Positions 39,432-61,151 of a stretch of DNA of 64,000 nucleotides are shown here, one piece after another. The stretch comes from Candidatus Gottesmanbacteria bacterium. GTDB lineage: Bacteria; Patescibacteriota; Microgenomatia; UBA10105; UBA927. A program made the position numbers and the translations under genes. Under the pieces are notes generated by a model. It had not been told where the DNA came from, did not search any database, and saw nothing but the letters and a program-made list of their open reading frames with translations. Every line of letters starts with the position of its first letter. Position 1 is the stretch's first letter. The DNA is taken from positions 199,802-263,801 of the forward strand of contig CAIJMI010000005.1 of assembly GCA_903821745.1 (NCBI GenBank). Reading direction: 5' to 3'.

Positions 39432-40097
39432 ATGACAACAACACTCGTTATTTGTTGTAAAAACGAAGCCCCATCACTTGCTGCTGTCATCAATAAGGCA
39501 AAGCCGTACGTACATGAAATAATTGTCATCGATGGTCATTCAACCGATGGATCACGCACTATTGCCAAAAATGCAGGAGTAAAAGTATTTGAAGATAATG
39601 GAAAAGGCAAAGGAGCAGCAATACAACTGGGTATACAGAAAGCATCAGGAGACATCATCATATTTATGGATGCAGATGGCTCACATAAAGCGTCTGATAT
39701 CCCAAAACTTACTAAACCAATACATAAAAACAAAGCAGACCTTGTTATTGCATCGCGTGGAATTGGTGGCAGTAACGAACTACACGGGGATTTTGAAAAA
39801 ACATTGCGTCTTATCGGGAGTGCCATCATTACTCAAATAATTAACTGGCGGTACCATGCTCATATTACTGATTCCCAAAATGGATTTCGAGCAATTCGTC
39901 GCTCTGTTGCAAAATCACTGAATCTCCAAGCAAATAGTTTCGCTATCGAACAAGAAATGCTAATGCAAATTTTAAAACGTAATGCAAAAGTTAGTGAAAC
40001 AGGAAGTCATGAATTTGCACGTAAGTATGGAAATTCAAAAATTAATCTTCCAAGAATGTGGTATAAATACTTAATTAATTTAATACAAAATCTATAA
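39432..40097 (+). CDS. GT2 glycosyltransferase (DPM1/ArnC-like polyprenyl-phosphate sugar synthase)
   Basis: VICCKNEAPSL...IIVIDGHSTDGS...IIFMDADGSH, the DxD-containing GT-A fold pattern; 221 aa, a short soluble form. Confidence 0.8.
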   Translation: MTTTLVICCKNEAPSLAAVINKAKPYVHEIIVIDGHSTDGSRTIAKNAGVKVFEDNGKGKGAAIQLGIQKASGDIIIFMDADGSHKASDIPKLTKPIHKNKADLVIASRGIGGSNELHGDFEKTLRLIGSAIITQIINWRYHAHITDSQNGFRAIRRSVAKSLNLQANSFAIEQEMLMQILKRNAKVSETGSHEFARKYGNSKINLPRMWYKYLINLIQNL

Positions 40098-40132
40098 ATT
40101 AACTTGTACATTACAATGCACTTTCGTTCGTT

Positions 40133-41242
40133 TCAATAAAATGCATTATCTTTATTAACAATATTAACTACGATATTATAAAGAGAAAAAGCAATTCTAG
40201 CTTGGGATTCTTGATACAAATGCATTATGTCCATAAACATTGTTTCCTCTACGTTGGCAACGGCTGAAGATAGATCAACAAAGTAAACATTCTTATTACC
40301 CATAGCGTCAACGACTCGTTTCTTCATATCACGAAACCACTCCTGTTCTGTTGACATCACTAATGGTTTTTCTTCATCGGTTAAATACAATTTGTCATAC
40401 AAAATTGGCTGCAATATCGCAATATACTCACTTCCAAACGCATGACTTATTTTGTGGGCTTTTTGTAAATTATCACTGTATACGGAAATAATAGTATTTT
40501 TCCATGATTCTGAACCGTACATAGCCTCATTACGTATTTGTGTGAGAGGAACAAATTGATTCAGATACCATTCAGGAGCAAATCGTTCCGCAAAAAACTG
40601 AACAACCGGTAACTTAGATATAAAAAACTTCCAGATTGACATTCTTTCAGGATAAAGCAATGGACTAACCTCATACATCATATAATCATATGGATAACCT
40701 GGTCTTGGATCATAATATAAAGGGTGATACAAATCGTTTACTCCATCATATTGAATAATAAGATCTGGCTGTAAATTAGAGAGATTTGTTACGATAGTCA
40801 TTAATTCTTGAGAAGACACAGCAGAAATAACCCCAAAATTATACACTCGTACATTATAATATCCTCGTTTATGAAATTCTTCTTCAAGTAAAACTGGTAA
40901 AGACGGATCTCCTATGTATACTGTTGATCCACCCAATATACATATTCTGTATTCATCTACGGGTTTCGGTACAACAGGATATGGACCGCGATATCCTTCT
41001 TGATTATGATCTTCCCAATACGGAAGTCCTTTAAACATAATATATGGGTATGGAATCTTATAGGTATCTGTACGAAAACGTTCCTGTACAGGGTTACGAA
41101 TGCTAAGATACGCACTAAAAATAATGTTGATAATGGAAAAAAATAATATTATAGCGATCACAACTGCACTAATTTTCCCCAAAAGCGCTATCCAATAAGA
41201 TGTTTTTTTCTCTTTAAATAATCGTTTAGGTACGAAAAACAT
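40133..41242 (-). CDS. Membrane-anchored SGNH/GDSL-family hydrolase (paralog 1 of 5)
   Basis: N-terminal TM; block I ILGGSTVYIG, block III QYDGVNDL (GxND), block V DIMHLY (DxxH). Confidence 0.6.
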   Translation of the reverse strand: MFFVPKRLFKEKKTSYWIALLGKISAVVIAIILFFSIINIIFSAYLSIRNPVQERFRTDTYKIPYPYIMFKGLPYWEDHNQEGYRGPYPVVPKPVDEYRICILGGSTVYIGDPSLPVLLEEEFHKRGYYNVRVYNFGVISAVSSQELMTIVTNLSNLQPDLIIQYDGVNDLYHPLYYDPRPGYPYDYMMYEVSPLLYPERMSIWKFFISKLPVVQFFAERFAPEWYLNQFVPLTQIRNEAMYGSESWKNTIISVYSDNLQKAHKISHAFGSEYIAILQPILYDKLYLTDEEKPLVMSTEQEWFRDMKKRVVDAMGNKNVYFVDLSSAVANVEETMFMDIMHLYQESQARIAFSLYNIVVNIVNKDNAFY

Positions 41243-41297
41243 ATTGTATCTACATATATTCTTTTTCTTTAATATTTTATACTATAACATAGAATAT

Positions 41298-42773
41298 ATT
41301 ATGTCATTTACGAGGAGTTCGAGAAAATCACTATTCTCCATTCATACATACGAAAAAGCAATGTTTTGTCTCTGTGTGCTACACATTTTTTTAAGACTAC
41401 CTCTTCGAACTATGATTCCATTTAATGACGGGAATGTGTACTATGCAACAGTTTTTAACATTATCCAGAATAACCTCAATCCATTTATTTTTACAATATC
41501 ATATAAACCACCAGTCATTAGCGAGCTCATGGCTATTATTTTCTCGGTATTCCATCCATCTATCGTCATTGGAAACATAGCAATGTATATCATTTCATCC
41601 GTAACGTTATGGTATATATATCTTCTCGGGAAACGTGTATTTACTCCAGTTGTTGGTTTTTATGCCGCGTTACTATGTTCCTTATTTCCTCTTTTTACTG
41701 CTCAAAGCGTTGTTTTTAACGACGCCGTTATTGTCACAACTGTTGTTCTTGCTACGGTCTATTATTTCTTTTCATCTAATTGGATTGGGTATGGCATTGC
41801 CTGTTCGCTTCTTGTCTTAACAAAAGAACCACTTCTCGCTGTCCCTGTATTGCTCTATATATACTCCGTCATATATACATTTCAAAAATCACATACATCA
41901 TTTCTCACAATACTGATAAAACGAATTCCACTCCTTTTTCCACTTATATTATTTCCGATATGGATGTATATAAATAAACAAACACTCGGTATATATCTGG
42001 ATCCGATAAACCAAAACAAATCGTATCTACATCGTTTTTACGGAGCGCCCATTCAAGAAATCTTAAAATATCTTTTTGTTAAAAATGGCATGTGGTGGAT
42101 ATGGTTAACATTCGGTGTAACACTACTTAAACACTCAAACAGGATAAAAAAACAATGGATCATCATTATGTGGTTCATAACGATTTTTTTGTTCTACGGA
42201 ATATTCTTTTCTCTAAGCGCCTTTAATCCAAGATACATGCTCCCATATTTTCCATATGTTTTCATAAGCTTTTGTGCTGTACTGTTCTTCGCATATTCCA
42301 AAAAATTTTTTCGACTCTTTATACTCCTAACAGTTATTATGTTCCTCGGAATACATATCAATCTCTTTTTCTTCAACGTATCTGATGGCTGGGGAGAAGG
42401 TGATTTACGTATTATTCAAACAACGTCTCTTTATACAAAAACTTTTGAGTATGTCTACGAACATTACCAACATCCTCTCATCGTCACCTATCCTGAAGTG
42501 TATACGTGGAGCGATACTGCATTTGGAAAAACTCCAGGCGCATACAAATATGAATGTTACTTTTTTAATCAAATTAATGATGAGAAAGAAGAAATGCAAC
42601 GCATGTTCACCTATGCAAAAGAAAAAAATGCGTCTCCTATTATCTTTATTCAACCAAGTTACATGGGTGAAGTAAACGAAATAAACGCAATACGAAAATT
42701 GCCTATTAAACGAATTAATAATCCGTGGAATAAATATAACTATCACGACTTATACGAAATTGCAGTACAATAA
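41298..42773 (+). CDS. GT-C fold glycosyltransferase, ArnT/PMT(PMT_2)-like (paralog 1 of 3)
   Basis: Polytopic. First extracytoplasmic loop FNDGNVYYA...NPF...YKPPV resembles the ArnT/PMT DExxYA...KPPL signature; about 12 TMs. Start at the internal Met (41298) to leave a divergent promoter; the ORF begins at 41244. Confidence 0.5.
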   Translation: MMSFTRSSRKSLFSIHTYEKAMFCLCVLHIFLRLPLRTMIPFNDGNVYYATVFNIIQNNLNPFIFTISYKPPVISELMAIIFSVFHPSIVIGNIAMYIISSVTLWYIYLLGKRVFTPVVGFYAALLCSLFPLFTAQSVVFNDAVIVTTVVLATVYYFFSSNWIGYGIACSLLVLTKEPLLAVPVLLYIYSVIYTFQKSHTSFLTILIKRIPLLFPLILFPIWMYINKQTLGIYLDPINQNKSYLHRFYGAPIQEILKYLFVKNGMWWIWLTFGVTLLKHSNRIKKQWIIIMWFITIFLFYGIFFSLSAFNPRYMLPYFPYVFISFCAVLFFAYSKKFFRLFILLTVIMFLGIHINLFFFNVSDGWGEGDLRIIQTTSLYTKTFEYVYEHYQHPLIVTYPEVYTWSDTAFGKTPGAYKYECYFFNQINDEKEEMQRMFTYAKEKNASPIIFIQPSYMGEVNEINAIRKLPIKRINNPWNKYNYHDLYEIAVQ

Positions 42774-43833
42774 ACAAGATATGCAACGATTACTCGCCAG
42801 CGTACTACCTGTTCTCCAATCAAATTTCAAAAGACTTCCCCATCCATATAAATTAACCTTTGCAATAACCTATCGGTGTAACTCACGATGTACCATTTGT
42901 AATATCTGGAAAAAACCGCATTTCCCTGAAATGACGCTTGATAACATCAAAAAATTTTTCACCGCTAATCCTTACTTTCGCTGGGTAAATTTAACAGGAG
43001 GAGAAGTATTTTTACGACCTGATCTTATTGAGATTATCAAGATAATTCTTCATACACAAAAAAATCTATATTTTTTAAACTTTCCAACAAACGGCATCAT
43101 GACAAAACAGATTGTTAAACAATTACAACAAATTCTTAATCTTAATCCACCCCATTTCATTGTATCTATCTCTCTTGACGGTCCCAAAACAACACATGAT
43201 ACGCTTCGTGGAATAACAGGAAACTGGGAAAAGGCAGTAAAAACTTATAAAGAATTAAAGAAACTACGATCCAGTCATTTTGACACCTATTTCGGAATGA
43301 CACTCTCTCATTATAATAATGGACTCATCGAACAAACTTATGAGGAACTAAAAAAAGCCATCCCCTCACTTAAGCGGTCTGATATTCACTTCAATATTGC
43401 CCATCATTCATCTCATTATTATGGAAATACTGCTCAAGACGGAAACGTCAACATAAAAACAATAGAGCATCTTGATGCGTACAACAAAAAAAAGAGCTTT
43501 GTGTTAACAAAAATATCGTTCATAGAATATGTTTACCAACGCCACATAAAACAATATCTCACAACAAAAAAAACACCTCTCCCATGTCTTGCGCTCTCAA
43601 GTTCAGTATTTCTTAACCCCTATGGCATGATTTATCCATGCTCCATGTGGAATATGCCTCTTGCCAATATTCAAGATATTAATTATGATCTCCAAGCGCT
43701 CTGGAATACAAAAAAAACAAAACAGGCAAGAATCCTCATTGCGCGAAAAAAATGTTCAAATTGCTGGACACCATGTGAAGCATATCAAAGCATCTTGGGC
43801 AATATGTTTACATCTGAAGTATGGGAAAAATAA
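42760..43833 (+). CDS. Radical SAM protein with C-terminal SPASM/twitch-like Cys cluster
   Basis: CNSRCTIC (Cx3Cx2C) at residues 40-47 and a C-terminal Cys cluster ...PCLA...YPCS...CSNCWTPCEAY; 357 aa. Confidence 0.8.
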   Translation: MQYNKQDMQRLLASVLPVLQSNFKRLPHPYKLTFAITYRCNSRCTICNIWKKPHFPEMTLDNIKKFFTANPYFRWVNLTGGEVFLRPDLIEIIKIILHTQKNLYFLNFPTNGIMTKQIVKQLQQILNLNPPHFIVSISLDGPKTTHDTLRGITGNWEKAVKTYKELKKLRSSHFDTYFGMTLSHYNNGLIEQTYEELKKAIPSLKRSDIHFNIAHHSSHYYGNTAQDGNVNIKTIEHLDAYNKKKSFVLTKISFIEYVYQRHIKQYLTTKKTPLPCLALSSSVFLNPYGMIYPCSMWNMPLANIQDINYDLQALWNTKKTKQARILIARKKCSNCWTPCEAYQSILGNMFTSEVWEK

Positions 43834-45296
43834 CATTTCCCCGCGTACAACGACTTCTTCTTATCAATCCCTACGCAGGGTATGCACAAGGAACAAATGA
43901 ATCGACTGTATATCCTCCCATCGGACTTTCTTATGTTGCAGCCAGCGCTGAACAATGTGGCGTACACTGTAACATTATTGATGCCGCAGCACTAAAATTA
44001 CCGATAAAATCGTTGTTTGCCACAATTAAAGCATTTGTACCCGATTGTATTGGTATTACGAGTAACATTGTTACCGCTGAAGCAGCAATTCAAACTGGGA
44101 AAGAGATACATGCACGGTTTCCAACAATTCCCCTTATTTTTGGTGGTCCTTATGCAACGGCATATCCTGAATATATCTTAAAACAAACACAAGGCTATCT
44201 TGTTATTCGAGGAGAAGCAGAAGAAACTATCAAGGAACTTCTATCCAGACGCGTTTCTCTTTCATCAATACGTGGTATTTCATATAAAAAGGGACGTAGA
44301 TATATACACACAAATCAACGCCCATTAATTCAGGATATCAACACAATTCCCTTCCCCGCTTACCATTTACTCCCTCCACTATCCGTATATAAATCAAGAA
44401 ATAGAAAAACACCAATAGGCGTCATCCTCTCAAGTCGTGGATGTCCCTATCAATGTATTTATTGCAATGCAAATATTTTTGGAAAACAATTTCGCCCAAG
44501 AAGTGTCGATAATGTATTAAAAGAAATAGATATATTAGTTACTACATATCACATCAAACAACTAGATGTTTTAGACGATAATTTTACATTACTTATTGAG
44601 AGAGCTGAAGCAATTTTTGACGGTATTATTAAAAATAAGTTTAACATTCGTATCAATCTTCAAAACGGCGTACGAGCAGATCGACTTAGCCCACGGCTTA
44701 TTCGAAAAATGAAACAGGCAGGTGTCTACAAAGCCACCATAGGCGTAGAATCAGCCGATCTCCACATACAAAAAACCATAAAAAAAACATTGTCACTTCC
44801 AAAGGTTGTATGGGCAATCAAACAATTTCGCAAATACGATATTATTACTGCGTGCACATTTATCTTCGGCCTACCTGGAGAAACAAAGAAAACCATTGAA
44901 AAAACAATAGCATTTGCTATACGCGCTAACCCACATATGGCAAATTTTTCTGCTCTTGTTCCTTTACCGCAAACAGCAGTATACGAAATGATTCAAAAAA
45001 ATGGAACATTTCTCCGGCCTATCGAGCATGGATTACCAACTGGTTTTATCACAAACACATTATATTTTAAACTTGACGCAATAAATCAAGAATTGATTTC
45101 ATTCGCCATGTCTTCTGCTTTTCGACTTTTTTACTTCAGAATTTCAAAACTTATAGATTTATCCAAAACAATCCGTTCGTGGGGAGAATTTACTTGGAGT
45201 CTTTCTATGATTTACGGAGTGATAAAAAATATTAATATTTTTCCATCAACAAAAATATTTTCGCGTTATTTATTACATGAAAGTGAGATATGCTGA
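43821..45296 (+). CDS. B12-binding (class B) radical SAM protein
   Basis: N-terminal B12-binding Rossmann region (LLINPY...YPPIGLSYVAA...IGITS), then SSRGCPYQCIYC (Cx3Cx2C). 491 aa; overlaps the preceding rSAM gene by 13 nt. Confidence 0.8.
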   Translation: MGKITFPRVQRLLLINPYAGYAQGTNESTVYPPIGLSYVAASAEQCGVHCNIIDAAALKLPIKSLFATIKAFVPDCIGITSNIVTAEAAIQTGKEIHARFPTIPLIFGGPYATAYPEYILKQTQGYLVIRGEAEETIKELLSRRVSLSSIRGISYKKGRRYIHTNQRPLIQDINTIPFPAYHLLPPLSVYKSRNRKTPIGVILSSRGCPYQCIYCNANIFGKQFRPRSVDNVLKEIDILVTTYHIKQLDVLDDNFTLLIERAEAIFDGIIKNKFNIRINLQNGVRADRLSPRLIRKMKQAGVYKATIGVESADLHIQKTIKKTLSLPKVVWAIKQFRKYDIITACTFIFGLPGETKKTIEKTIAFAIRANPHMANFSALVPLPQTAVYEMIQKNGTFLRPIEHGLPTGFITNTLYFKLDAINQELISFAMSSAFRLFYFRISKLIDLSKTIRSWGEFTWSLSMIYGVIKNINIFPSTKIFSRYLLHESEIC

Positions 45297-46300
45297 ATTT
45301 CTGAAACTAGTATTTGTGCTATACGGTTGTGGCCTGCTTCAGCGACGTGGCACTCATCGACTAACTCATTAGAATATGAATCTAAAAACAACTGTTCTAA
45401 ATCAACAAATGGAACCTGTTCTTTCTGAGCGACAACCCGTAATAAGGCATTATATTTCGGAACAGATGCACGCCAATTATCTGACGCTGTTTGAGAAACG
45501 TCACCGTGTAAGCGGGTTAGTAATAACACTGACGTTCCCTGAGACCGAGCAATTCGGATAAACTCCTCTATATTATGTACATAGTCTGAGTAAGAAACCC
45601 TTGATACGTTACCTTGCGTTTTTCGAAACACAAGACTCACCTTATCAGAATAATAAAATATCACTTGAAACAAACGAGATATTGACAATGGCGTAATAAT
45701 GCCGGAAAGAAATGAATGGAACTCGTTATCTGGAATTCCCATAGCCGGAGCTGCATCATTCCAACCAAAAGATATAATAATTAGGGATGGATGAAATACA
45801 AATACATCTTGTTTAAATTTCTCCAGCCCTTGATACGATGAGTATCCCATCACTCCCATATTTAAAACACGAAACGGTGTGGATTGATCTTTTAAATAGG
45901 AAGCGAGTACTTCTGGCCATGGAGTATCAACATATCTGCCAGGAATAATCCCTAACGTATTCGAATCTCCATACGTGAGGATAGTACATCCTGAAACGGT
46001 TGCTATATTTTCTTGTATCGATGATCCGCGAATACCCAACTCATTAAATACTCCCCAATTCTTTTTTGGTTTCCAAAATAACACAGGGTCATATTCTAAA
46101 TCAGAGTCATTTTCAGAAAGTACAAAATCCAAACGCAGTTCTTCTTTTTCAACACGCTCTTTTTTTAGTTCTATCGGTTTGTAGTATGAAAGAATATGAA
46201 ACGCGGTAAGTATACGAGCAATACATTCAAAACCAACAAAAAGCAAAATGAAAAAACAAACCCCAAGAATAACAGATAGTATTTTTTCTTTATATGTCAT
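45266..46300 (-). CDS. Membrane-anchored SGNH/GDSL-family hydrolase (paralog 2 of 5)
   Basis: N-terminal TM; block I ILTYGDSNTLG, block III FGWNDAA, block V DECHVAEAGH. Confidence 0.7.
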   Translation of the reverse strand: MTYKEKILSVILGVCFFILLFVGFECIARILTAFHILSYYKPIELKKERVEKEELRLDFVLSENDSDLEYDPVLFWKPKKNWGVFNELGIRGSSIQENIATVSGCTILTYGDSNTLGIIPGRYVDTPWPEVLASYLKDQSTPFRVLNMGVMGYSSYQGLEKFKQDVFVFHPSLIIISFGWNDAAPAMGIPDNEFHSFLSGIITPLSISRLFQVIFYYSDKVSLVFRKTQGNVSRVSYSDYVHNIEEFIRIARSQGTSVLLLTRLHGDVSQTASDNWRASVPKYNALLRVVAQKEQVPFVDLEQLFLDSYSNELVDECHVAEAGHNRIAQILVSEIQHISLSCNK

Positions 46301-51228: not shown

Positions 51229-51254
51229 AAAAAAAGCCCCGCCTTGTGCGGGGT
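51229..51254 (-). terminator. Intrinsic terminator-like hairpin about 90 nt upstream of the 16S 5' end (insulator or leader structure)
   Basis: The minus strand reads CCCCGC-ACAAG-GCGGGG followed by CTTTTTTT. Confidence 0.5.
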
Positions 51255-51394
51255 TCATACCCAAAAACACGAAGCGAATTGGCTTACTTTCTCATTGCAA
51301 ATGTCAATTATACGGGAAGGGGTAATCTGCGTCAATCCCCAATGTATTTATGGCTAAATTTACAAACGGAAGCATATACGATACACTAAATACT

Positions 51395-51547
51395 ATGTTT
51401 CAAACCATGAAGCAATTACTCATACTTGCTATCCATTCGAAAAAAATTTGGATTATTCCCATTATCCTCTTTCTCATTATTATCGCCCTTCTTATTATCA
51501 GCGCGCAAATAAGCCCCCTGCCTGTCTTCCTCTACCCGATTTTATGA
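51395..51547 (+). CDS. Small hydrophobic single-TM protein (about 50 aa)
   Basis: MFQTMKQLLILAIHSKKIWIIPIILFLIIIALLIISAQ... Its TGA stop overlaps the ATG of the next small ORF (ATGA coupling). Confidence 0.35.
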   Translation: MFQTMKQLLILAIHSKKIWIIPIILFLIIIALLIISAQISPLPVFLYPIL

Positions 51548-51732
51548 ACGTCATAAAAAAGTTAAACACATTGTTTATAGCATTCAGTGTTGGAATTATC
51601 TACGTTTTTATCATTGGTTTAGCGTGGATCATATATCGGCTGACCCAACATGTTTCTTCAGTTTCAGATAGCTATTGGTTGATACCAGAAAAGAAAAAAT
51701 TACCTAAACACTTTTTTTCATCACCCTATTAA
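51544..51732 (+). CDS. Small single-TM protein (62 aa) immediately upstream of the carbamoyltransferase
   Basis: MNVIKKLNTLFIAFSVGIIYVFIIGLAWIIYRL... It ends 2 nt before the carbamoyltransferase start. Confidence 0.4.
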   Translation: MNVIKKLNTLFIAFSVGIIYVFIIGLAWIIYRLTQHVSSVSDSYWLIPEKKKLPKHFFSSPY

Positions 51733-53434: not shown

Positions 53435-54610
53435 ATGATCAAACAGGTTTTATACAGTATCATAGGCATGTGTATTGTTTTTGTACTCTCTGAACTTTTT
53501 CTTGGAGAAGCTAAAAAATTTTCTCCAAAATTACTTTTTTTTACAAAAAATCCATATCAGCAAAGCCGGTATGTGACCAATATTGACTGGCAAGGATTAT
53601 GGACATTGTCTAACTGCCCTACTCCACCAGAATTTGAATTATATGGATTTGTTTTAAATTCTAAAGGATTCAGGACTCCTGAAACTCCCTACCAAAAACC
53701 ATCAGATACGAAACGGTTAGTCCTACTTGGAGATTCTCAAGCTGTTGGACCAATTCCGTATAATCAATTATTTCTTAACCTATTAGAAAAAAACATTAGG
53801 GCAGAGTATCCAAAAAAATTTCAAGCTATTAATCTCGCATTGCCTTGCATAGGACCCCCCATTGAAGAGATACTGCTTTCTTTAGAAGGAATTCGATATC
53901 AGCCAGACATTATTGTACTTGCATTTTATGTAGGAAACGATTTTTTGGACGCAAATTTAGATATTGAACGGTACGCCAGTGAAAAAAATAAACAACCACA
54001 TATCCTCCCTTTTATATTCTATCAATCAAAACTCATATCGTTAACGCGAAATTTGTATTACACGTTTCGTTTTGGTCGAAAATCTATGATGACGAAGCAA
54101 ACTAAATCATCCCCTTCTTATGGCACGATGGGAATCGATGATTATTCGTCTTACAACCCTCATGAACCAACATTTCCATTGGAGGAATTTTTAGCTTTGG
54201 AAATGGACAAATCATCCATTCTATTACCACATAGCGACGTATACGCTTCATTACCGCAAATTCAGCAAAATATTAGCCATATGAAAGAATTAACTGAAAA
54301 AGCACGGGCACATTTTTTAGTTCTTATTATTCCAGAAGAAATGCAAGTAAATAGAGATCTATTGCATACAATAGCGTTGAAACAAAATATTCCAGTTGAT
54401 TCGTTTGATGTAGAATTGCCACAACGCGTGCTCAAGCAGTATTTCGACCAAAATCATATCAACTATATTGATCTATTGGAAATGTGGAAATCAGATACCT
54501 CAGCAATGCAGTATTTCCAACCGCAAGATACCCATTTAAACACCTTAGGTAACCAATCGGTTGCTCGTATTCTTTTTCCAGAAATAATAAAATTACTAAA
54601 CGAACAATAA
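53435..54610 (+). CDS. Membrane-anchored SGNH/GDSL-family hydrolase (paralog 3 of 5)
   Basis: N-terminal TM; LVLLGDSQAVGP (block I), YVGNDFLD (block III), QDTHLNTLGN (block V). Confidence 0.65.
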   Translation: MIKQVLYSIIGMCIVFVLSELFLGEAKKFSPKLLFFTKNPYQQSRYVTNIDWQGLWTLSNCPTPPEFELYGFVLNSKGFRTPETPYQKPSDTKRLVLLGDSQAVGPIPYNQLFLNLLEKNIRAEYPKKFQAINLALPCIGPPIEEILLSLEGIRYQPDIIVLAFYVGNDFLDANLDIERYASEKNKQPHILPFIFYQSKLISLTRNLYYTFRFGRKSMMTKQTKSSPSYGTMGIDDYSSYNPHEPTFPLEEFLALEMDKSSILLPHSDVYASLPQIQQNISHMKELTEKARAHFLVLIIPEEMQVNRDLLHTIALKQNIPVDSFDVELPQRVLKQYFDQNHINYIDLLEMWKSDTSAMQYFQPQDTHLNTLGNQSVARILFPEIIKLLNEQ

Positions 54611-54628: not shown

Positions 54629-56302
54629 ATGAAGAAACCAAAAGTCATTCAGAGAAATACTACTATCGTTTCGACTATTCTTTTTATTATGATAATCGTA
54701 TCACTCACAGTGTTTCGTGTATGGTTGATTAAAAATAGAGAACTAGTTGCCATTACTCCCTCACCTCACGATATGCAGCTGTATATAACAAACGCTGAAT
54801 CCATTGCGAATGGAAATTGGCTTGGTCCATATAATGAACGAATTATTACGAGAGGACCCGTATTCCCACTGTTTATTGCAATAACATATCTTCTTCATAT
54901 TCCGCTTACCATAGCACAGACACTCCTCTATTGTGCCGCAGCATTTTTATTTCTCGGTTGTGCGATACCGTTGGTAAAAAAGAAATGGATCCTGATACCG
55001 CTCTATACGCTCATTTTATTTAATCCTTTTATGATTGATCATGAAACTTTTTTTGAACTCACGCGATCTGCTTTATATCCAGCTCTCAGTATGGCAGTTG
55101 CAATGAGTTGTTTCGGCCTCGTTACTTCGGTACATACAGCGTATAAAAAAAGTGTATTCTATACATGCTCTCTTGGTATATTCTTTTTCCTCTTTTGGTA
55201 CTATCGGGAAGAAGGGTTTTTCTTACTTCCCCTCATTGGTGTATGTTATGGATATTCTTTGTGGATAACATGGAAACAAAAAAAAGTATCAAAAAAATAC
55301 GTCATAGCACTCATAATTCCCATTCTCATATTCCTTGGTGGAACACACATAGTAAGTTCCGTCAATAAAAAAACGTATGGGATATACACAGCACGAGAAT
55401 TTTCTTACCCGAGTTATACAAAAGCGTTTTCAGCATTGCTCCGCATTCAACCAGAAGAGCATAATCCACTCATCAGTCTGCCAAAATCGACAAGACAAAT
55501 ACTGTATGTGGTAAGTCCAACATTTGCAAAGCTCCGATCATTCTTTGAAGGAGAAGGTGGATATGATTGGGCACGCAACAGTGTTGTCTGGACAGGGATA
55601 CCACCGGAAGAGCATGAACTCGCCGGAGGCGCTTTTCATTTTGCCCTCCGTGACGCAATATGGCGGATCACGAGACCTTCACAAAAAAATGAACAACTGC
55701 TTTTCGAGAAACTCACCAAAGAAATCAATGCTGCGTGTAAGGCAAAATATATTTCCTGTGGTCTCTTACCAATTAGCGGATTTACTTTGTTTAATCAGGA
55801 AGATCGTGAACATTTTTATAATCAATTTGTGAACACCATACAAACAGGGGTGCTTGCCGATAACCTCGATCTCTCAACAACTCCCAAATATAGTCATGGA
55901 CCGGAAAATCAAATTGCACTATTTAAAAAAATGACAAGAGGAATTATTCTTACTGATAACCAACGACCTCCATATCAATCATCACTTGTGCCATTCACGA
56001 ACACATATATCCAATATTGGTATCAACAGTTCATGCCAATAATATTTTTGTTGTCGTATGTGTATTTTCTTATACGACTTTTCAAACAACAAAAACTTAC
56101 CTTCACCGATTGGTTTCAGGCCTCATTACTCCTTTGTTCACTATTATTTTACGGCGTAGTCGCATTCTTTGGAACAATTAAATCCCCAACCAATACAACC
56201 GCCAGCTCTTATACATCAGGGGCGTACGCATTATTGCTTCTCTTTGTGTGTTTAGAAATACTCACACTCCAAACCAAGCCTACTGTGAAACACAGGAAAT
56301 AA
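54629..56302 (+). CDS. GT-C fold glycosyltransferase, ArnT/PMT-like (paralog 3 of 3)
   Basis: 557 aa. Loop 1 PHDMQLYITNAESIANGNWLGPY...ITRGPVFP; homologous along its length to the 47674-49371 ORF (FNPF..., K.YG.YT..E...YTKA... blocks). Confidence 0.55.
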   Translation: MKKPKVIQRNTTIVSTILFIMIIVSLTVFRVWLIKNRELVAITPSPHDMQLYITNAESIANGNWLGPYNERIITRGPVFPLFIAITYLLHIPLTIAQTLLYCAAAFLFLGCAIPLVKKKWILIPLYTLILFNPFMIDHETFFELTRSALYPALSMAVAMSCFGLVTSVHTAYKKSVFYTCSLGIFFFLFWYYREEGFFLLPLIGVCYGYSLWITWKQKKVSKKYVIALIIPILIFLGGTHIVSSVNKKTYGIYTAREFSYPSYTKAFSALLRIQPEEHNPLISLPKSTRQILYVVSPTFAKLRSFFEGEGGYDWARNSVVWTGIPPEEHELAGGAFHFALRDAIWRITRPSQKNEQLLFEKLTKEINAACKAKYISCGLLPISGFTLFNQEDREHFYNQFVNTIQTGVLADNLDLSTTPKYSHGPENQIALFKKMTRGIILTDNQRPPYQSSLVPFTNTYIQYWYQQFMPIIFLLSYVYFLIRLFKQQKLTFTDWFQASLLLCSLLFYGVVAFFGTIKSPTNTTASSYTSGAYALLLLFVCLEILTLQTKPTVKHRK

Positions 56303-56339: not shown

Positions 56340-57323
56340 CTATAACATGTGACAGGATTTCAACATTCCGGAAGTTAACAATTGAAAAATAATTTGCGCG
56401 ATATGTGCATGTCCCAAAATATTCGGATGATAATCATGCGGTGCAAAGGTATCAACATCGCCTATTTCTGCATATGCAATATGCGCGTCAGCTGATAGAA
56501 AATGTTGCAATATTCTTTTATACTCTTGGGATTCATCTTGAAGCGTCAAAAATAATAATGGAGATGTCTTCTGTTGTATGAGCGTTCGTATTGCCGTAAG
56601 TTCGGGTTGAAGAAAGATTTCTTTCTTATCTGATGATAACCTGTTCAATGAATCCATATAGTCCTTATACGACAATGTTGATGCCGCATATGGGTCATTC
56701 ATGTCAACCTGATACCGCTTGGAGGCTCCGGTCTTTTGCAGTTCCTTTTTATAAAATTCTTCCCGTTCCCGATATATATCCGTATTCATAAATATATTTT
56801 CACCCCGCACAAACCATATCAGATAATCAGGATGATATTTGGCACCTATATCCTCATATCGTTTTGCAATATAGCGCACATCAAATCCGGGCGCACCTAA
56901 ATTAAGCACCTCAAATTTTTGAATGGTAGAACACGCTATTGTTGTATTTAACCGCGTCTCTAACAGTTCAGAAAAATTCTCATGTTGATTTACCCACATA
57001 CCAAAAACGAAAGAATCACCGAGTGTCATAATTCGAAATACTCCATCATCCTTTTTCACCGAATAGTCGATAGGATCCGCAAGGCCGTCACTATTGTAAT
57101 GATATGTTACTTTTTCTGGCAACCACGCAGCAGTTGCCACATCGTCAATATTTGTGGGAAAAAGATAATAATATTGAAATGTAGCATCAGGTGCGAACGT
57201 CAATAACAAACGAGGTAATGCATTGTGTTGCGGAAAAAACGGTTTTTTAAAAACATATTTCCAAATAAAAAAAATCGCAATCAACTCCATGGACACAGTT
57301 GCAATAAAAATATATTTTTTCAT
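56340..57323 (-). CDS. Membrane-anchored SGNH/GDSL-family hydrolase (paralog 4 of 5)
   Basis: N-terminal TM; RIMTLGDSFVFGMW (block I), LNLGAPGFD (block II), DYHPNILGH (block V). Confidence 0.6.
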   Translation of the reverse strand: MKKYIFIATVSMELIAIFFIWKYVFKKPFFPQHNALPRLLLTFAPDATFQYYYLFPTNIDDVATAAWLPEKVTYHYNSDGLADPIDYSVKKDDGVFRIMTLGDSFVFGMWVNQHENFSELLETRLNTTIACSTIQKFEVLNLGAPGFDVRYIAKRYEDIGAKYHPDYLIWFVRGENIFMNTDIYREREEFYKKELQKTGASKRYQVDMNDPYAASTLSYKDYMDSLNRLSSDKKEIFLQPELTAIRTLIQQKTSPLLFLTLQDESQEYKRILQHFLSADAHIAYAEIGDVDTFAPHDYHPNILGHAHIAQIIFQLLTSGMLKSCHML

Positions 57324-58312
57324 ATACCTTTACAGGAAAAATATGCCGATGTTGTTATCTTATTAAATAAAAACTCTGCAAAAATCGTATGTCCTGTAGC
57401 TGATGGATGCTGATCTGGGAGCTGAGGAAAATTGTCTGGTATCTCTGGATAGAAATGTACTGATGGATACTTGGAAACAACGGATTCTATCTTCAAACGG
57501 ATATCTTCAGGAAATGAGGCGAGAGTAAAAATAATTGTTGGACGAGCAATGCGCTTCAAAAGCTCTTGCAAATATTCCATTTCCTGTACAATTAATGCTT
57601 CACGCGGATGTGTTTCATAAAATTTATTAAACAATACTGTTTGTTCCGGATAAAAATCACCAAGTGAACGGTATTTTTCTACGAGAACAGGCTCCTGCAC
57701 TTGCGGTTCCCACTGAGAATTAAATACTCGAAGCGATTCACTCGGCACTAAAAAATCATTATCATTCGTCCACAACAAAACCAAATCAGGAGTGTACTTC
57801 ATTCCTTTCCGTTGATATCGTATCAGATTATATTGCATATCATATCCGGAAACTCCTAAATTAATAACTTCAAAACGCATTTTGTTGGCACACTGTACGT
57901 GGGCATTTAACATATCTTCCAATACTTCTGAATAATTCTGTTCGGTATTGAGATATACACCCTGCGTGAACGAATCACCAAGAGAAATAATACGAAAAAC
58001 GTCAGGACTTTTCTGTGTTGAATAATCAAACCGCTCATGCAGACCATCTGCATTAAAAGTTTGCGTAATCATTTCGTCCACTCCGAATTTCGCAAAATTT
58101 TCATGTATCTGAATATTTGCTTTTGGTTCGTCGTAAAATTGCAGACCACTATCTTGAAGAATCTGGGTATAGTCTTTTTCTACTGGCAATACATGAATTT
58201 TTTTTGGAGTATGTACAAAACGTCTGTCGTAATACCGATATCCAAGCACACAAATACATCCGCATTCGATCAGGATAAAAATCCACCAAACGAATATCAT
58301 TGGTCTAAACAT
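57320..58312 (-). CDS. Membrane-anchored SGNH/GDSL-family hydrolase (paralog 5 of 5, tandem with paralog 4)
   Basis: N-terminal TM; RIISLGDSFTQGVY (block I), INLGVSGYD (block II), WTNDNDF (block III), DQHPSATGH (block V). 4-nt ATGA overlap with the downstream paralog. Confidence 0.6.
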   Translation of the reverse strand: MFRPMIFVWWIFILIECGCICVLGYRYYDRRFVHTPKKIHVLPVEKDYTQILQDSGLQFYDEPKANIQIHENFAKFGVDEMITQTFNADGLHERFDYSTQKSPDVFRIISLGDSFTQGVYLNTEQNYSEVLEDMLNAHVQCANKMRFEVINLGVSGYDMQYNLIRYQRKGMKYTPDLVLLWTNDNDFLVPSESLRVFNSQWEPQVQEPVLVEKYRSLGDFYPEQTVLFNKFYETHPREALIVQEMEYLQELLKRIARPTIIFTLASFPEDIRLKIESVVSKYPSVHFYPEIPDNFPQLPDQHPSATGHTIFAEFLFNKITTSAYFSCKGI

Positions 58313-58329: not shown

Positions 58330-58863
58330 CTATTTTGTTAACTGACGAACAATATCGTAGAGTACTATTCCCGTCGTTACCATTACATTGAGGGATGTAT
58401 TGATTCCAAACATCGGTAGTTCCACAATCGTATCCACATGTTTCAGAACCTCTTTTGAGACACCATAAGATTCATTGCCAATCACAATTGCCACAGGGGT
58501 GGAATATGTTATTTTTTCAAACGGAATGCTTCGCGTATCCTGTTCTACGGCAATAATTTGTAATTTTGGATTTTCTTTTTTTACTTGAATAACTAAAGCA
58601 GCAGTATCCGGTGCATATTCCCAATTCACCCATTGCCAGGTATTGATAGAGGCTTTTTTGATCCGCGTGTTTGGCGGAGTTTCAGTAGACCCACATAAAT
58701 ACACTTTTTCTGCTGCGACCGCATCGGCAAGACGAAAAATGGATCCGATGTTATAGGTGTCCAACACATTATCCAAGATTATAATGATTGGATTTTTCTT
58801 AATCTTTTTTGCAACCTGTTCGTCAACTGGTTGCGTCCTTAGTTCTGCTGCATTTAATTTCAT
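58330..58863 (-). CDS. SpoU/TrmH-family RNA 2'-O-methyltransferase (SPOUT)
   Basis: IIILDNVLDTYNIGSIFRLADAV and a C-terminal IVIGNESYGVS...ELPMFGINTSLNV trefoil-knot pattern; 177 aa. Confidence 0.8.
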   Translation of the reverse strand: MKLNAAELRTQPVDEQVAKKIKKNPIIIILDNVLDTYNIGSIFRLADAVAAEKVYLCGSTETPPNTRIKKASINTWQWVNWEYAPDTAALVIQVKKENPKLQIIAVEQDTRSIPFEKITYSTPVAIVIGNESYGVSKEVLKHVDTIVELPMFGINTSLNVMVTTGIVLYDIVRQLTK

Positions 58864-58930: not shown

Positions 58931-60334
58931 ATGGCAAAGATAGTCATGGTTCAACTTCAATGCGCTCCCTACTGCGGCACCGCATATTTACACGCTGCAG
59001 CAAAAAAGGCAGGCCACCAATTTATTCTCATCCTCAGCACAGATAGCCAACAGATCTGTCAAAAAATTACGAAAGAGAAACCAGACATCATCGGTTTTTC
59101 CTGTTTAAGCAGTTTTATGAACGATACGCTTGATATTTGTCGGAGCATCAAAAAAATAACAAAAACACCAATTATTTTAGGCGGTCCACATCCCACGTTA
59201 TTTCCTGAGGTTATACACGAAAAATCCATCGATCTTATCTGTCGAGGGGAAGGTGAATTTGCGCTCATGGATCTGCTGAATGCAATCGAACAAAAAAAAT
59301 CATATGCACATATCAAAAATCTTTGGGTCAAAGAAAAAAAGAACATTATCAAAAATCCGCTTCGTCCACTTGTCTATCCGCTCGATACCATTCCCCTCAT
59401 CGATTGGTCCTGTTACCAAAATACGCCAGTCCTCTATGGATCCCCAACGGTATTTCTCATTCGGGGTTGTCCATTCTCCTGTAATTATTGTTTCAATGAA
59501 AAAACACGGGCACTCTACCATGGATTAGGACCATACCTCAGACACTTCAGTGTTCAGCGGTCCATTCAGGAAATCCAAGCTGCATTACAATATTTCCCAC
59601 CAAATCCAATTATTTTTGCATCCGATTCCTTCGGGGTTGACCTTCCGTGGATGAATGAAGTATTCAAAGCATATACAAAAATCACTCCACTCCCCTTTGT
59701 CATATTATTACGACCTGAACTCACAACAAACGCATGCATTAAAATTTTGGCAAAATATAATTGTTACAGCGTCTCAATCGGTGTCGAATCCGGGTCGCGC
59801 CGTGTACGACAAGACATCGTACAAAGAAATTATACAAATGACTATCTCATATCGATGGCAACAACCCTCCATGAGCATGGAATAAAATTTAAGACATTCA
59901 ATATGCTTGGACTTCCGACAGAAACAGAACAGGAAATGTGGGAAACAATTATGATCAACGTTCGAATGAAAACAGATTATCCAAGGGCTGCAATTTTTAC
60001 ACCATTCCCCGGAACAAAAATTGTCGATATTGCGAAGAAATACGGATATTTAGACCAGGACTATGATTTCACCAACTTACCAGAAACCGTTCTTGACAGG
60101 ACCATCCTGAAAAGACTGAATCCAAATTATGTACAGAACATGCTGTTCTTTTTTCAAACCGCCGTACAATTTCCTTGGCTCATTCCTATCATAAAAAAAC
60201 TTGTCCGGTGGAAGTCAAACCTACTGTTTCGCATCTGGTTTTATAGTGTCTATGCGCTGATAAACGGACTTTCGGAAAAACGGTCCCTGCGTACGTATAT
60301 ACCGTATCTGTATGCAAACCGAACATATCGTTAA
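58931..60334 (+). CDS. B12-binding (class B) radical SAM protein (second copy)
   Basis: N-terminal B12-binding domain (IVMVQLQCAPY...IIGFSC...ILGGPHPT), RGCPFSCNYC (Cx3Cx2C); 467 aa. Confidence 0.8.
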   Translation: MAKIVMVQLQCAPYCGTAYLHAAAKKAGHQFILILSTDSQQICQKITKEKPDIIGFSCLSSFMNDTLDICRSIKKITKTPIILGGPHPTLFPEVIHEKSIDLICRGEGEFALMDLLNAIEQKKSYAHIKNLWVKEKKNIIKNPLRPLVYPLDTIPLIDWSCYQNTPVLYGSPTVFLIRGCPFSCNYCFNEKTRALYHGLGPYLRHFSVQRSIQEIQAALQYFPPNPIIFASDSFGVDLPWMNEVFKAYTKITPLPFVILLRPELTTNACIKILAKYNCYSVSIGVESGSRRVRQDIVQRNYTNDYLISMATTLHEHGIKFKTFNMLGLPTETEQEMWETIMINVRMKTDYPRAAIFTPFPGTKIVDIAKKYGYLDQDYDFTNLPETVLDRTILKRLNPNYVQNMLFFFQTAVQFPWLIPIIKKLVRWKSNLLFRIWFYSVYALINGLSEKRSLRTYIPYLYANRTYR

Positions 60335-60337
60335 TTC

Positions 60338-60907
60338 TTACCGTCTCCGTTTGTTATGAAGTTTTTTTGGTTTCGTCCGGTTCATCTTATCATATTGATA
60401 CCATTGCATGATTCCATACCCAATCATCCATCCTACAGCAGCTCCGGCAAGCACGTCTCCTGGATAATGCGCCCCAAGATAAATTCTGGAAAATCCAACG
60501 AAAACCGCAAGGAGATACAGCCATTTTTTAAACCGCGGTTCCTTAGAGGAAAGCACATAGGCAAGTGCAAATGCAAATGTTGTGTGTGTTGAAGGGAATG
60601 AATATCCGTTTGGAAATCCGACAACAATAGCAGTATCCAGAATGGTCGATGGACGAAGCCGAGCAACGAAATCCTTGATGGCAAATTCGGAAAGAATCCA
60701 GGTAAACACCCCGGCAAGTCCAAGAGGGAGAAAAAATTGTTTGTCTTTCCGTTCTTCCTTCGCAATCAACCAGATACCGATCACAAACCAAATAAATCCG
60801 TTGTCCCCGATACCGGAAATTAAACTAAAAAACCCGTCCGATAACCACCCGTGCGGTAAATGATTGATTGCAAAAAAGAGGGTTGTATCGATAGCGCCAA
60901 TATTCAT
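60338..60907 (-). CDS. PAP2-family lipid phosphatase (polyprenyl-diphosphate/PA phosphatase-like)
   Basis: KDFVARLRP (KX6RP), FPSTHT (PSGH), SRIYLGAHYPGDV (SRX5HX3D); 6 TMs. Confidence 0.8.
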   Translation of the reverse strand: MNIGAIDTTLFFAINHLPHGWLSDGFFSLISGIGDNGFIWFVIGIWLIAKEERKDKQFFLPLGLAGVFTWILSEFAIKDFVARLRPSTILDTAIVVGFPNGYSFPSTHTTFAFALAYVLSSKEPRFKKWLYLLAVFVGFSRIYLGAHYPGDVLAGAAVGWMIGYGIMQWYQYDKMNRTKPKKLHNKRRR

Positions 60908-60932
60908 ACCATTACAGTATCAAAAACTACCC

Positions 60933-61151
60933 TTATCTGCCAGAGGCACCTTTTGGTGTTGCAGACACGGATGCAGGAATGGCAGGTGTGATCGGTGTGG
61001 GAGAAATAAAAATAATTTTAATGGATCCTTCGGGGGGAACTGGAGAAACGACTTTCCTTCCGGCAAATATGATGCCCATCACAATGATAATAAGAACGAC
61101 AAACCCAATGAGAATGGTGATTGCTGCAACAGTTTTCGTCCTATCCTCCAT
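60933..61151 (-). CDS. Small hypothetical membrane protein (72 aa)
   Basis: Single TM (VAAITILIGFVVLIIIVMGIIFA) followed by a Pro/Thr-rich tail; fills the gap between the PAP2 gene and topA. Confidence 0.4.
   Translation of the reverse strand: MEDRTKTVAAITILIGFVVLIIIVMGIIFAGRKVVSPVPPEGSIKIIFISPTPITPAIPASVSATPKGASGR

Follow-up and report, generated by a model that had tools for sequence, protein, structure and literature searches.

A species-variable region of putative envelope-glycan decoration genes between tRNA-Cys and topA in a Candidatus Gottesmanbacteria genome

Bacteria of the Candidate Phyla Radiation (CPR, or Patescibacteria) depend on other microbes or live attached to them, and, to our knowledge, hardly anything has been recorded of their surface chemistry. 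Here, we analyzed 64,000 nucleotides from the very small genome of a groundwater-type Candidatus Gottesmanbacteria bacterium (NCBI GenBank assembly GCA_903821745.1, contig CAIJMI010000005.1, positions 199,802 to 263,801 of the forward strand; this whole stretch is referred to as the window and is numbered from its first letter). Our subject is the region from 39432 to 61151, in which open reading frames (ORFs) are dense on both strands. We consider it fairly probable that this is a species-variable envelope-glycan decoration region based on polyprenyl-phosphate chemistry, with a family 2 glycosyltransferase (GT2) and membrane-embedded glycosyltransferases of the GT-C type, and not one inserted pathway. 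The reading draws on domain and fold assignments, a conserved gene scaffold, content that differs between species, atypical base composition, and the recurrence of B12-binding radical S-adenosylmethionine (SAM) genes beside GT-C genes in other lineages. The cargo comprises one GT2, three GT-C-fold proteins, a further polytopic membrane protein, five membrane-anchored SGNH hydrolases (SGNH-1 to SGNH-5), an O-carbamoyltransferase with two mini proteins, and three radical-SAM enzymes, one with a SPASM domain and two that bind B12 (B12a and B12b). The original prediction, made from the letters and ORFs, had listed almost exactly these genes, and its inventory was borne out nearly item by item by Pfam, NCBIfam, PDB, Rfam, and ARAGORN; its account of how the genes belong together required more revision.

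A fixed order of genes runs through the region, namely dcd, tRNA-Ile, tRNA-Cys, a lone 16S rRNA gene, SpoU, PAP2, a gene for a 72-amino-acid membrane protein, topA, and dprA, and it leaves two cargo slots, a left one between tRNA-Cys and the 16S rRNA gene and a right one between the 16S rRNA gene and SpoU. The left boundary, formed by tRNA-Cys(GCA) (39276-39348, minus strand) and the adjoining tRNA-Ile(GAT) (39128-39200, minus strand; both from ARAGORN and Rfam) with dcd just outside (38553-39152; NCBIfam), is shared by three loci from relatives (L055, with dcd, tRNA-Ile, and tRNA-Cys in this order; L054; and L007). The complete and solitary 16S rRNA gene (49659-51145, minus strand; Rfam RF00177, 1347 bits) is an internal landmark found at the same position in L007 and L010, and no 23S rRNA, 5S rRNA, or spacer tRNA was found within the window by Rfam or ARAGORN. 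On the right, tblastn of the block proteins against the relatives' loci, some of which end at contig ends, showed that dprA (63263-63874; Pfam), topA (61169-63193; Pfam), the 72-amino-acid protein (60933-61151, minus strand), PAP2 (60338-60907, minus strand; PF01569, E 4.9e-25), and SpoU (58330-58863, minus strand; PF00588, E 5.4e-34) are kept together across L005 to L013. The SpoU product is a SpoU/TrmH-class RNA 2'-O-methyltransferase that resembles RlmB/TrmH, the best NCBIfam matches of the PAP2 phosphatase are SepP and UppP-type undecaprenyl-diphosphatases, and the 72-amino-acid protein has one transmembrane segment and a Pro/Ser/Thr-rich tail. Since these three genes are conserved next to topA in relatives, they belong to the scaffold rather than to the cargo.

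The exception is L010, in which SpoU and the 72-amino-acid protein are kept and BacA (11280-12050) lies between them in place of PAP2, which looks like a non-orthologous replacement. Because BacA holds the same position there, PAP2 is most likely, and most simply, a general undecaprenyl-diphosphate phosphatase and not the pathway member that it had been taken for. Similarly, the 16S rRNA gene had been named as the only housekeeping gene of the block, a statement that fails because SpoU, PAP2, and the 72-amino-acid protein are also scaffold in relatives; SpoU and the 16S rRNA gene are unrelated housekeeping genes rather than parts of a pathway.

What lies in the two slots differs from species to species, and the modules assort independently among relatives. 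The left slot holds between one and at least nine genes: a SGNH-2 homolog is the only gene between the 16S rRNA gene and tRNA-Cys in L007, and a B12a homolog immediately follows tRNA-Cys in L055. L054, in which B12a is 84% identical, begins with tRNA-Cys, GT2, an extra PMT_2 gene, an extra SGNH gene, and SGNH-1, and continues with PMT_2, SPASM, B12a, a 31%-identical homolog of the 442-amino-acid membrane protein, and SGNH-2, the last two being swapped relative to the window. In the right slot, L006 keeps SGNH-4, SGNH-5, the 557-amino-acid GT-C, SGNH-3, and the carbamoyltransferase; L007 has SGNH-4, SGNH-5, SGNH-3, the carbamoyltransferase, and both mini proteins, without GT-C and B12b; and L009 has SGNH-5, B12b, and GT-C. 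L008 combines an unrelated protein of eight transmembrane segments with the carbamoyltransferase trio, followed by an epimerase fusion, a GT2, and a UDP-N-acetylglucosamine 2-epimerase, with none of the window's SGNH proteins alongside the trio. In the closest species (L005), SpoU is directly followed by such a set of epimerase fusion, GT2, and UDP-N-acetylglucosamine 2-epimerase genes, joined by those for an RmlD-like protein, a C-methyltransferase of sugars, and an isomerase of dTDP-sugars. B12b, which lies between SpoU and PAP2 in the window, follows SpoU in L006 and L009, where its orthologs are 84% and 68% identical. In a distant relative (L015, TopA 51% identical), a gap of only 3 kb, containing pyrG and dut, separates topA from dcd. 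The genes are thus clustered rather than dispersed in relatives, as had been anticipated, with variability compared here between species. Orthologs of B12b (84%), GT-C (71%), and the carbamoyltransferase (about 80%) diverge at a housekeeping rate.

Composition separates the two slots. The GC content of the left slot is 0.34; its genes have a GC content of 0.33 to 0.37 and a third-codon-position GC content of 0.24 to 0.32, versus 0.358 ± 0.041 in 23 flank genes, and the tetranucleotide distance to the flanks (4-kb) is 0.35 for the left slot, 0.19 to 0.22 for the right slot, and 0.12 to 0.16 within the flanks. The left slot is therefore clearly atypical, and the right slot is intermediate. The description of the block as inserted held in part: content varies in relatives and the left half is atypical, but no integrase, recombinase, or transposase was found among the Pfam domains of the block, and there are no att-like direct repeats longer than chance. 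With neither an integrase nor att-like repeats, a classical integrase-mediated tRNA island was rejected; the cargo lies on the 5' side of tRNA-Cys. Conserved flanks, differing content, and atypical low-GC cargo, the features of a hypervariable surface-glycan region, are all present. Gene packing is operon-like, with overlaps of 4 to 31 nucleotides, and strand orientation alternates within the block.

The GT2 gene, first in the left slot, encodes a soluble protein of 221 amino acids (39432-40097, plus strand; PF00535, E 8.7e-28) that is a candidate polyprenyl-phosphate sugar synthase. Its best NCBIfam matches are AglJ, PpgS, and dolichyl-phosphate hexose transferase, with a weak match to PgfS, and its best PDB matches are the Pyrococcus furiosus dolichyl-phosphate-mannose synthase 5mlz (E 1.2e-14) and then ArnC, so that its acceptor would, by sequence resemblance, be a lipid phosphate. 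A 75%-identical ortholog stands next to tRNA-Cys in L054. The left slot also encodes a GT-C of the PMT_2/ArnT type (41244-42773, plus strand; PF13231, E 3.1e-9, 37.7 bits versus a cut-off of 26.1) with about 9 to 10 transmembrane segments, the likely true start of which is Met20 at 41301, in agreement with a 490-amino-acid gene call. Asp62, after the first transmembrane segment, is invariant in its alignment; a PDB sequence search with this protein gave no meaningful match.

Two further membrane proteins, of 565 amino acids (47674-49371, minus strand) and 557 amino acids (54629-56302, plus strand), are paralogs with 28% identity over 452 amino acids (blastp, E 9e-43), and they have no match in Pfam, NCBIfam, or, by sequence, the PDB. 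Their GT-C fold had to come from structure. GT-C Pfam models were matched by 0 of 65 sampled family members, and comparison with the local PMT_2 profile was not significant (hhalign probability 31%). An AlphaFold2 model of the 565-amino-acid protein built on a 65-sequence alignment reached a predicted local distance difference test (pLDDT) score of 91.8 and a predicted template modeling score of 0.92, and it replaced a model from a 4-sequence alignment with a pLDDT of 51. The top Foldseek match of this model was ArnT (E 3.4e-4, probability 1.0), yet with a low global template modeling score of 0.32. As modeled, the family has a polytopic GT-C fold whose first outer loop bears an acidic motif. 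Across the 65 members, D50 never varies, and conservation reaches 90% or more at D51 and R192-E193-E194; D50 and D51 lie just after the first transmembrane segment. The 565-amino-acid family has a conserved His-Asp-Asp motif, and the family-invariant residues are present in the 557-amino-acid protein, orthologs of which are 71% identical in L006 and 56% identical in L009. The 565- and 557-amino-acid proteins share the GT-C fold but fall outside the PMT/PMT_2 sequence families, and the region thus holds three GT-C-fold proteins of two sequence families. The prediction of three GT-C paralogs stands as regards the fold; only the pair at 47674-49371 and 54629-56302 is detectably paralogous.

This family is large. 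A word-indexed homolog search with the 565-amino-acid protein returned only 3 relatives, and a query with the 4-sequence alignment added none; an exhaustive HMMER search of 1.84 billion cluster representatives found at least 2886 at E ≤ 1e-3 and 644 at E ≤ 1e-30. Where source names exist for sampled members, all are "hypothetical protein." One member (P0034) has an N-terminal GtrA domain fused to it, a GtrA gene neighbors the homolog in a Desulforhopalus locus (L003), the start of another member (P0018) overlaps the end of a GtrB-type GT2 (PF00535 plus GT2_TM_C) with a PMT_2 gene next, and polysaccharide genes surround a further member (P0009). The GtrA fusion and neighbor, the GtrB-type overlap, and the polysaccharide context tie the family to polyprenyl-phosphate sugars. 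In the Desulforhopalus locus (8414-13959), the homolog is flanked by two NAD_binding_8/amino-oxidase genes as well as GtrA, a neighborhood that suggests a dedicated sugar-modifying module. Variant architectures among P0034, P0005, P0006, and P0063 include the GtrA domain, an N-terminal extension of about 200 amino acids, and lengths of 1100 to 1480 or more amino acids with two matched stretches.

All three radical-SAM enzymes of the original prediction were recovered with the domains it had assigned. The SPASM enzyme (42760-43833, plus strand; PF04055, E 2.4e-15; PF13186, E 1.4e-7) has no NCBIfam equivalog, and B12a (43821-45296, plus strand; PF02310, E 1.4e-18; PF04055, E 7.7e-22) is HpnJ/BchE-like, with HpnJ as its best NCBIfam match (161 bits versus a cut-off of 578). 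B12b (58931-60334, plus strand; PF02310, E 2.4e-18; PF04055, E 6.8e-20) is 21% identical to B12a. The SPASM enzyme has an 86%-identical ortholog in L054, in the same PMT_2-SPASM-B12 order; L054 is the only one among 80 metagenome loci with this exact trio, and close B12a orthologs (more than 45% identity) occur only in Gottesmanbacteria-like contigs. More distant B12a relatives also adjoin PMT_2-like GT-C and GT2 genes. In a different organism (L056, positions 1-16000, B12a 42% identical), one operon encodes three B12-binding radical-SAM enzymes, three PMT_2 proteins, and two GT2s, together with an orphan of 11 transmembrane segments, an epimerase, a hexapeptide acyltransferase, a GT4, and a methyltransferase, and B12-binding radical-SAM genes stand beside PMT_2-like GT-C genes in unrelated contigs including L056, L063, L064, L072, L073, and L087. 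A PMT_2-like ORF was found near B12a homologs in 9 of 79 loci versus 0 of 40 control topA loci (Fisher p = 0.028, from small numbers and a home-made hidden Markov model [HMM]), immediately downstream of the homolog in 5 of the 9. We regard this recurrence in other metagenomic lineages as a modest new lead. Our literature search returned nothing relevant on B12-binding radical-SAM enzymes and ArnT in Patescibacteria.

The five SGNH proteins are SGNH-1 (40133-41242, minus strand; weak match to Lipase_GDSL_2, E 5.5e-3; transmembrane segment 24-42; motifs GGS, GVND, and DxxH), SGNH-2 (45266-46300, minus strand; PF13472, E 3.5e-18; transmembrane segment 10-28; GDS, GWND, and DECH), SGNH-3 (53435-54610, plus strand; weak match to ALGX, E 1.5e-3; transmembrane anchor; GDS, GND, and D-T-H), SGNH-4 (56340-57323, minus strand; PF13472, E 6.3e-4, sub-threshold; transmembrane anchor), and SGNH-5 (57320-58312, minus strand; PF13472, E 2.7e-9; transmembrane anchor). 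Only two, SGNH-2 and SGNH-5, pass the Pfam threshold, and the original assignment of all five to membrane-anchored SGNH enzymes was upheld by alignment, paralogy, and profile comparison. A single hydrophobic anchor lies at the N terminus of each protein. When the five are aligned, the Ser of block I and the His of block V never vary and the Asn and Asp blocks are present with the variants GGS, GEN, and DxH, so that, judged by these motifs (block I Ser, III Asn, and V Asp-x(1,2)-His), all five are predicted members of the SGNH/GDSL superfamily; the five-protein profile matches solved GDSL/SGNH esterases, best 1yzf (E 5.5e-11). SGNH-4 and SGNH-5 are a tandem pair whose genes overlap by 4 nucleotides (29% identity, E 7e-37), and SGNH-3 is related to both (E 3e-6). 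Orthologs of SGNH-1 (52%, in L054) and SGNH-3 (74%, in L006) were found, and those of SGNH-4 and SGNH-5 are only 27 to 47% identical where TopA is 73 to 80% identical. The claim of extreme paralog expansion needs the corresponding qualification: the region does hold paralogs, but they are old and divergent (17 to 29% identity) rather than recent.

The predicted coupling of a NodU/CmcH-type O-carbamoyltransferase with two single-transmembrane mini proteins is confirmed by Pfam domains, including DUF5989, and by overlapping coordinates. A 50-amino-acid DUF5989 protein (51395-51547, plus strand; PF19451, E 3.3e-7, 30.7 bits versus a cut-off of 27), read from an internal Met, is followed by a 62-amino-acid protein (51544-51732, plus strand) whose start overlaps the DUF5989 stop (ATGA) and which ends 1 nucleotide before the start of the cytoplasmic carbamoyltransferase (51734-53431, plus strand; PF02543, E 2.9e-84; PF16861, E 1.1e-62). 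PDB relatives of the enzyme are NovN (E 2.8e-91), GdmN, and TobZ; the 62-amino-acid protein, which is placed like SxtJ, has no Pfam match and no detectable similarity to SxtJ. In L007 and L008, the DUF5989 protein is kept with the carbamoyltransferase and the 62-amino-acid protein is kept at 30 to 53% identity. By analogy with a saxitoxin carbamoyltransferase and its two small partners (compared below), we infer that the trio may work on a membrane-bound intermediate. Our literature search returned nothing relevant on DUF5989.

These assignments can be arranged into a mechanism in which the chemical steps, the topology, the acceptor, and a substrate shared by all modules are proposed rather than observed. 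The GT2 would load a nucleotide-sugar-derived sugar onto polyprenyl phosphate at the inner membrane face, and the lipid-linked sugar would then be flipped, with no flippase recognized. The three GT-C transferases, one of the PMT_2 type and two of the unannotated family, would pass the sugar to acceptors outside the membrane, for which a wall polymer, a lipoglycan, and Ser/Thr/Pro-rich proteins are candidates. The carbamoyltransferase, held at the membrane by the DUF5989 protein and the second mini protein, might carbamoylate a hydroxyl of the lipid-linked intermediate, and the B12-binding and SPASM radical-SAM enzymes might modify the lipid-linked sugar by C-methylation or by an HpnJ/Cds-like rearrangement. 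Finally, the five SGNH enzymes, facing outward, would esterify the exported glycan with acyl groups or release such groups from it; because there is no MBOAT or AT3 partner, an esterase or trans-esterase role on the glycan is likelier than PatB-like acetyl transfer.

Several observations weigh against this favored reading. Neither the block nor the other window proteins include a flippase of the GtrA, Wzx, MATE, or ArnE/F type (Pfam and NCBIfam), and no other small ORF with several transmembrane segments is present in the window as a flippase candidate. No initiating phosphoglycosyltransferase, polymerase, ABC or other exporter, or ligase was found among the block proteins (Pfam and NCBIfam); the block would decorate a polymer rather than build one. 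None of the NCBIfam scores of the GT2 comes near an equivalog cut-off, and the protein is without the transmembrane segments of GtrB and ArnC. The near-orphan 442-amino-acid protein (46349-47677, plus strand), with 8 to 10 transmembrane segments, matches nothing in Pfam or NCBIfam and is not significantly similar to either GT-C profile (hhalign); it has only two homologs (31 to 35% identity), with no further copies in HMM searches of all relatives' loci, and is a possible flippase candidate. For the proposed acyl-transfer role of the SGNH proteins, no MBOAT or AT3 (Acyl_transf_3) partner was found in the block or window by Pfam. The association of B12-binding radical-SAM genes with GT-C genes has the small numbers noted above, and, as the modules occur apart in relatives, they may not share a substrate. 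Lipid-carrier-dependent glycosylation thus holds up as a chemistry, given the GT2 relatives, the three GT-C folds, the GtrA/GtrB contexts, and the sugar-gene set of L005, but not as one dedicated pathway, since the modules assort independently.

That independence could also mean that the region is a collage of unrelated envelope modules gathered in a recombination-tolerant slot, with different substrates and no single system. The carbamoyltransferase and DUF5989 pair without the window's SGNH proteins in L008, the SGNH proteins without GT-C and B12b in L007, and the combination of SGNH-5, B12b, and GT-C in L009 would all be expected of such a collage, as would the shuffled gene order (B12b moves, and SGNH-2 and the 442-amino-acid gene are swapped in L054), the alternating strands, and the interspersed 16S, SpoU, and PAP2 housekeeping genes. 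However, all cargo families are related to the envelope or to glycans and the remaining 42 kb of the window contain none of them, the tight overlaps imply co-translation in sub-operons, GT2, GT-C, and B12-binding radical-SAM genes occur together in the unrelated L056 operon, and in L005 and L008 this slot is filled by a set of sugar-nucleotide genes; we therefore think a mere collage rather unlikely. Dedicated protein O-glycosylation of the Pmt/Ppm1 or PgfS/PgfM type, a narrower form of the favored reading in which the GT-C enzymes target Ser/Thr/Pro-rich tails such as that of the 72-amino-acid protein, appears unlikely. The weak PgfS match of the GT2, the conservation in all relatives of this protein, with its one transmembrane segment and Pro/Ser/Thr-rich tail, and the streptococcal precedent of two GT-C enzymes per locus (PMC12041528) speak for it, but Pmt-typical acceptor-binding domains such as MIR are absent, the 72-amino-acid protein also occurs in L005 and L008, where no GT-C homolog was detected (their left slots lie outside the sampled region), and fold comparison does not discriminate between acceptors.

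A cell without its own lipid synthesis might instead use the region for lipid scavenging and remodeling, with the SGNH enzymes harvesting host lipids, the radical-SAM enzymes and PAP2 modifying lipids, and GT2 and GT-C making glycolipids. The SGNH profile does match lipase/acylhydrolase and thioesterase I/lysophospholipase L1 structures, as well as NCBIfam TesA, but acetyl-xylan esterases are among the profile matches too, and the SGNH family equally holds carbohydrate esterases. Named relatives of the B12 enzymes include HpnJ, HpnR, and "lipid biosynthesis B12-binding/radical SAM protein" (TIGR04072), and radical-SAM lipid modification is well documented (PMC13459092), yet all radical-SAM matches fall far below the family cut-offs; PAP2 belongs to a lipid phosphatase family, yet its position is interchangeable with that of BacA, a carrier-lipid phosphatase. 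Moreover, nucleotide-sugar enzymes lie in the same slot in L005 and L008, and a carbamoyltransferase and three GT-C proteins have no lipid-harvesting role, which together make lipid scavenging quite improbable. We give the least credence, as very improbable, to a cluster for a secondary metabolite or a ribosomally synthesized and post-translationally modified peptide, whose product, a small molecule or peptide, would be modified by the SPASM and B12 radical-SAM enzymes as maturases, by the carbamoyltransferase, and by the glycosyltransferases. The best named relatives of the SPASM protein include the peptide maturases AlbA, PapB, and WgkB, and the nearest solved relatives of the carbamoyltransferase (NovN, GdmN, and TobZ) tailor antibiotics. 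Against this, the block has no precursor-peptide gene, protease, exporter, or core synthase, radical-SAM matches are far below equivalog cut-offs, 9 of the 19 proteins are membrane-anchored envelope enzymes, and DUF5989-associated carbamoyltransferases are, from the existence of PF19451, not confined to toxin clusters.

If the region is, as we favor, a variable envelope-glycan decoration region, then about 2% of a chromosome of about 1 Mb (a size estimated from a relative's 1.02-Mb contig) is devoted to lipid-carrier-dependent surface decoration. Content turns over between sister species, a behavior shared with O-antigen loci and the hypervariable region of SAR11, which suggests that hosts, grazers, or phages exert selection on it. 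A variable surface-glycan region is of an already known kind; what is new is that a CPR genome has one and which genes it holds, together with the unannotated GT-C family and the association of B12-binding radical-SAM enzymes with GT-C, a pairing that could reveal new sugar chemistry on polyprenyl carriers. For annotation, PAP2, SpoU, and the 16S rRNA gene should be treated as scaffold genes and not as pathway members. A more far-reaching proposal, which we offer only tentatively, is the conjunction of three ideas: that B12-binding radical-SAM enzymes are functionally coupled to GT-C enzymes in an undescribed route for radical tailoring of a polyprenyl-phosphate sugar (C-methylation or ring rearrangement, as in HpnJ/Cds chemistry) before its transfer outside the cell, that the 565- and 557-amino-acid proteins constitute a new GT-C family, and that the locus is a CPR counterpart of SAR11 hypervariable region 2 (HVR2), with cassettes that are exchanged between lineages via the conserved tRNA, 16S, and topA anchors and that set host or phage recognition. 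Our literature search returned nothing relevant on cell-envelope variability in CPR or on glycosyltransferases of Gottesmanbacteria.

Some observations concern the host and the scaffold genes themselves. The best TopA matches are metagenome-assembled genomes (MAGs) of Candidatus Gottesmanbacteria/Microgenomates (86%, 80%, and 79% identity), and several MAGs with TopA 47 to 79% identical are titled "uncultured Gammaproteobacteria bacterium," probably as mislabeled co-assembly bins. The identical contig is present in several ENA samples, with the same locus at every place retrieved for this species. The longest dcd ORF overlaps tRNA-Ile, a gene absent from the original prediction, by 25 nucleotides, its true start being probably downstream in agreement with a 190-amino-acid gene call, and the glmS-dcd gap (37825-38515) contains two ORFs (112 and 103 amino acids) with no family on record that are called as genes in every contig copy. 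The 72-amino-acid protein lies directly downstream of topA in all Gottesmanbacteria relatives and might conceivably, like the Ser/Thr-rich tails known from streptococci, serve as an acceptor for O-glycosylation; in L006 only, a PIN_12-domain gene (12146-13159) lies between topA and the gene for this protein.

The 16S rRNA gene is flanked on its own (minus) strand by a promoter-like site with 11 of 12 consensus positions and a GC-rich leader hairpin (51335-51237), and it is followed by a terminator-like hairpin (49460-49440, minus strand); apart from these sites, the promoter and terminator scan showed no excess over shuffles. It is 99.2% identical (1475/1487) to that of L007, within an interval (49426-51314 versus 18750-20660 in L007) in which the leader and trailer are 85 to 97% identical and just outside of which identity drops to about 50 to 60%. 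DNA of the flanking protein genes is only 67 to 73% identical to that of L007 (TopA, 79% at the amino acid level), and the partial 16S rRNA gene of L010 is only 85% identical to that of the window. The 99.2% identity has two possible sources: the rRNA unit was exchanged or gene-converted between lineages, or the co-assembled MAG contains a consensus artifact.

The statement that the combination is not a described system was only partly true, as related systems have been described (PMC8035078; PMC2679770; bioRxiv 10.64898/2026.04.03.716430). Among the multi-component transmembrane glycosylation systems are GtrB/GtrA/GtrC, CsbB/GtcA/YfhO, GacI-J/GacK/GacL, and ArnC/ArnE-F/ArnT (PMC8035078), with which the region shares a GT-A/GT2 enzyme resembling polyprenyl-phosphate sugar synthases and a GT-C with an Asp motif in its first outer loop. 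In being soluble, the GT2 resembles GacI, whose partner is a small membrane protein (PMC8035078), and several GT-C enzymes per locus are also found in known systems, namely PgfM1/M2 (PMC12041528) and YkcB/YkoS. It differs from them in that no GtrA, Wzx, or MATE protein was recognized, two of its three GT-C proteins come from a family without a Pfam model, and radical-SAM, carbamoyl, and SGNH modules, which lie outside the described systems, are present.

For individual modules, closer comparisons can be made. With HpnI/HpnK/HpnJ (hopanoid cyclitol ether) and the archaeal calditol synthase Cds, a GT2 attaches a sugar to a lipid before a radical-SAM enzyme rearranges that sugar (PMC13459092); here, hopanoid genes are absent, and the lipid would be a polyprenyl phosphate carrier whose product is passed to GT-C. 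Saxitoxin genes sxtI, sxtJ, and sxtK encode a NodU/CmcH O-carbamoyltransferase and two very small proteins proposed to act together (PMC2679770), and the 50-amino-acid DUF5989 protein is about the size of SxtK (54 amino acids) and may be its equivalent, whereas the mini proteins precede the enzyme in the window, the 62-amino-acid protein with its one transmembrane segment contrasts with SxtJ at 134 amino acids, and the context is envelope glycan genes rather than a toxin pathway. PatA/PatB, AlgI/AlgJ/AlgX, and OatA likewise place anchored, outward-facing SGNH-fold proteins in glycan loci, and SGNH-3 weakly matches AlgX, but the window has no MBOAT/AT3 partner, and the catalytic motifs keep the canonical SGNH order, beginning with Ser and ending with His, in five divergent copies.

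As a genomic arrangement, the closest comparison is HVR2 of SAR11/Pelagibacter, a tRNA/rRNA-anchored hypervariable glycan region (bioRxiv 10.64898/2026.04.03.716430; Wilhelm et al. 2007 as cited there). The Gottesmanbacteria region belongs to a CPR phylum, is about 20 kb long versus a median of about 47 kb between rRNA landmarks, ends on the right at SpoU-PAP2-topA rather than at a tRNA, has variability documented between species rather than within a population, and carries mostly GT-C, SGNH, and radical-SAM genes versus Leloir glycosyltransferases. It nevertheless resembles HVR2 in lying at a fixed position in a streamlined genome, with genome-specific surface-polysaccharide genes, a tRNA at its boundary, an unlinked rRNA gene inside, and cargo of lower GC content.

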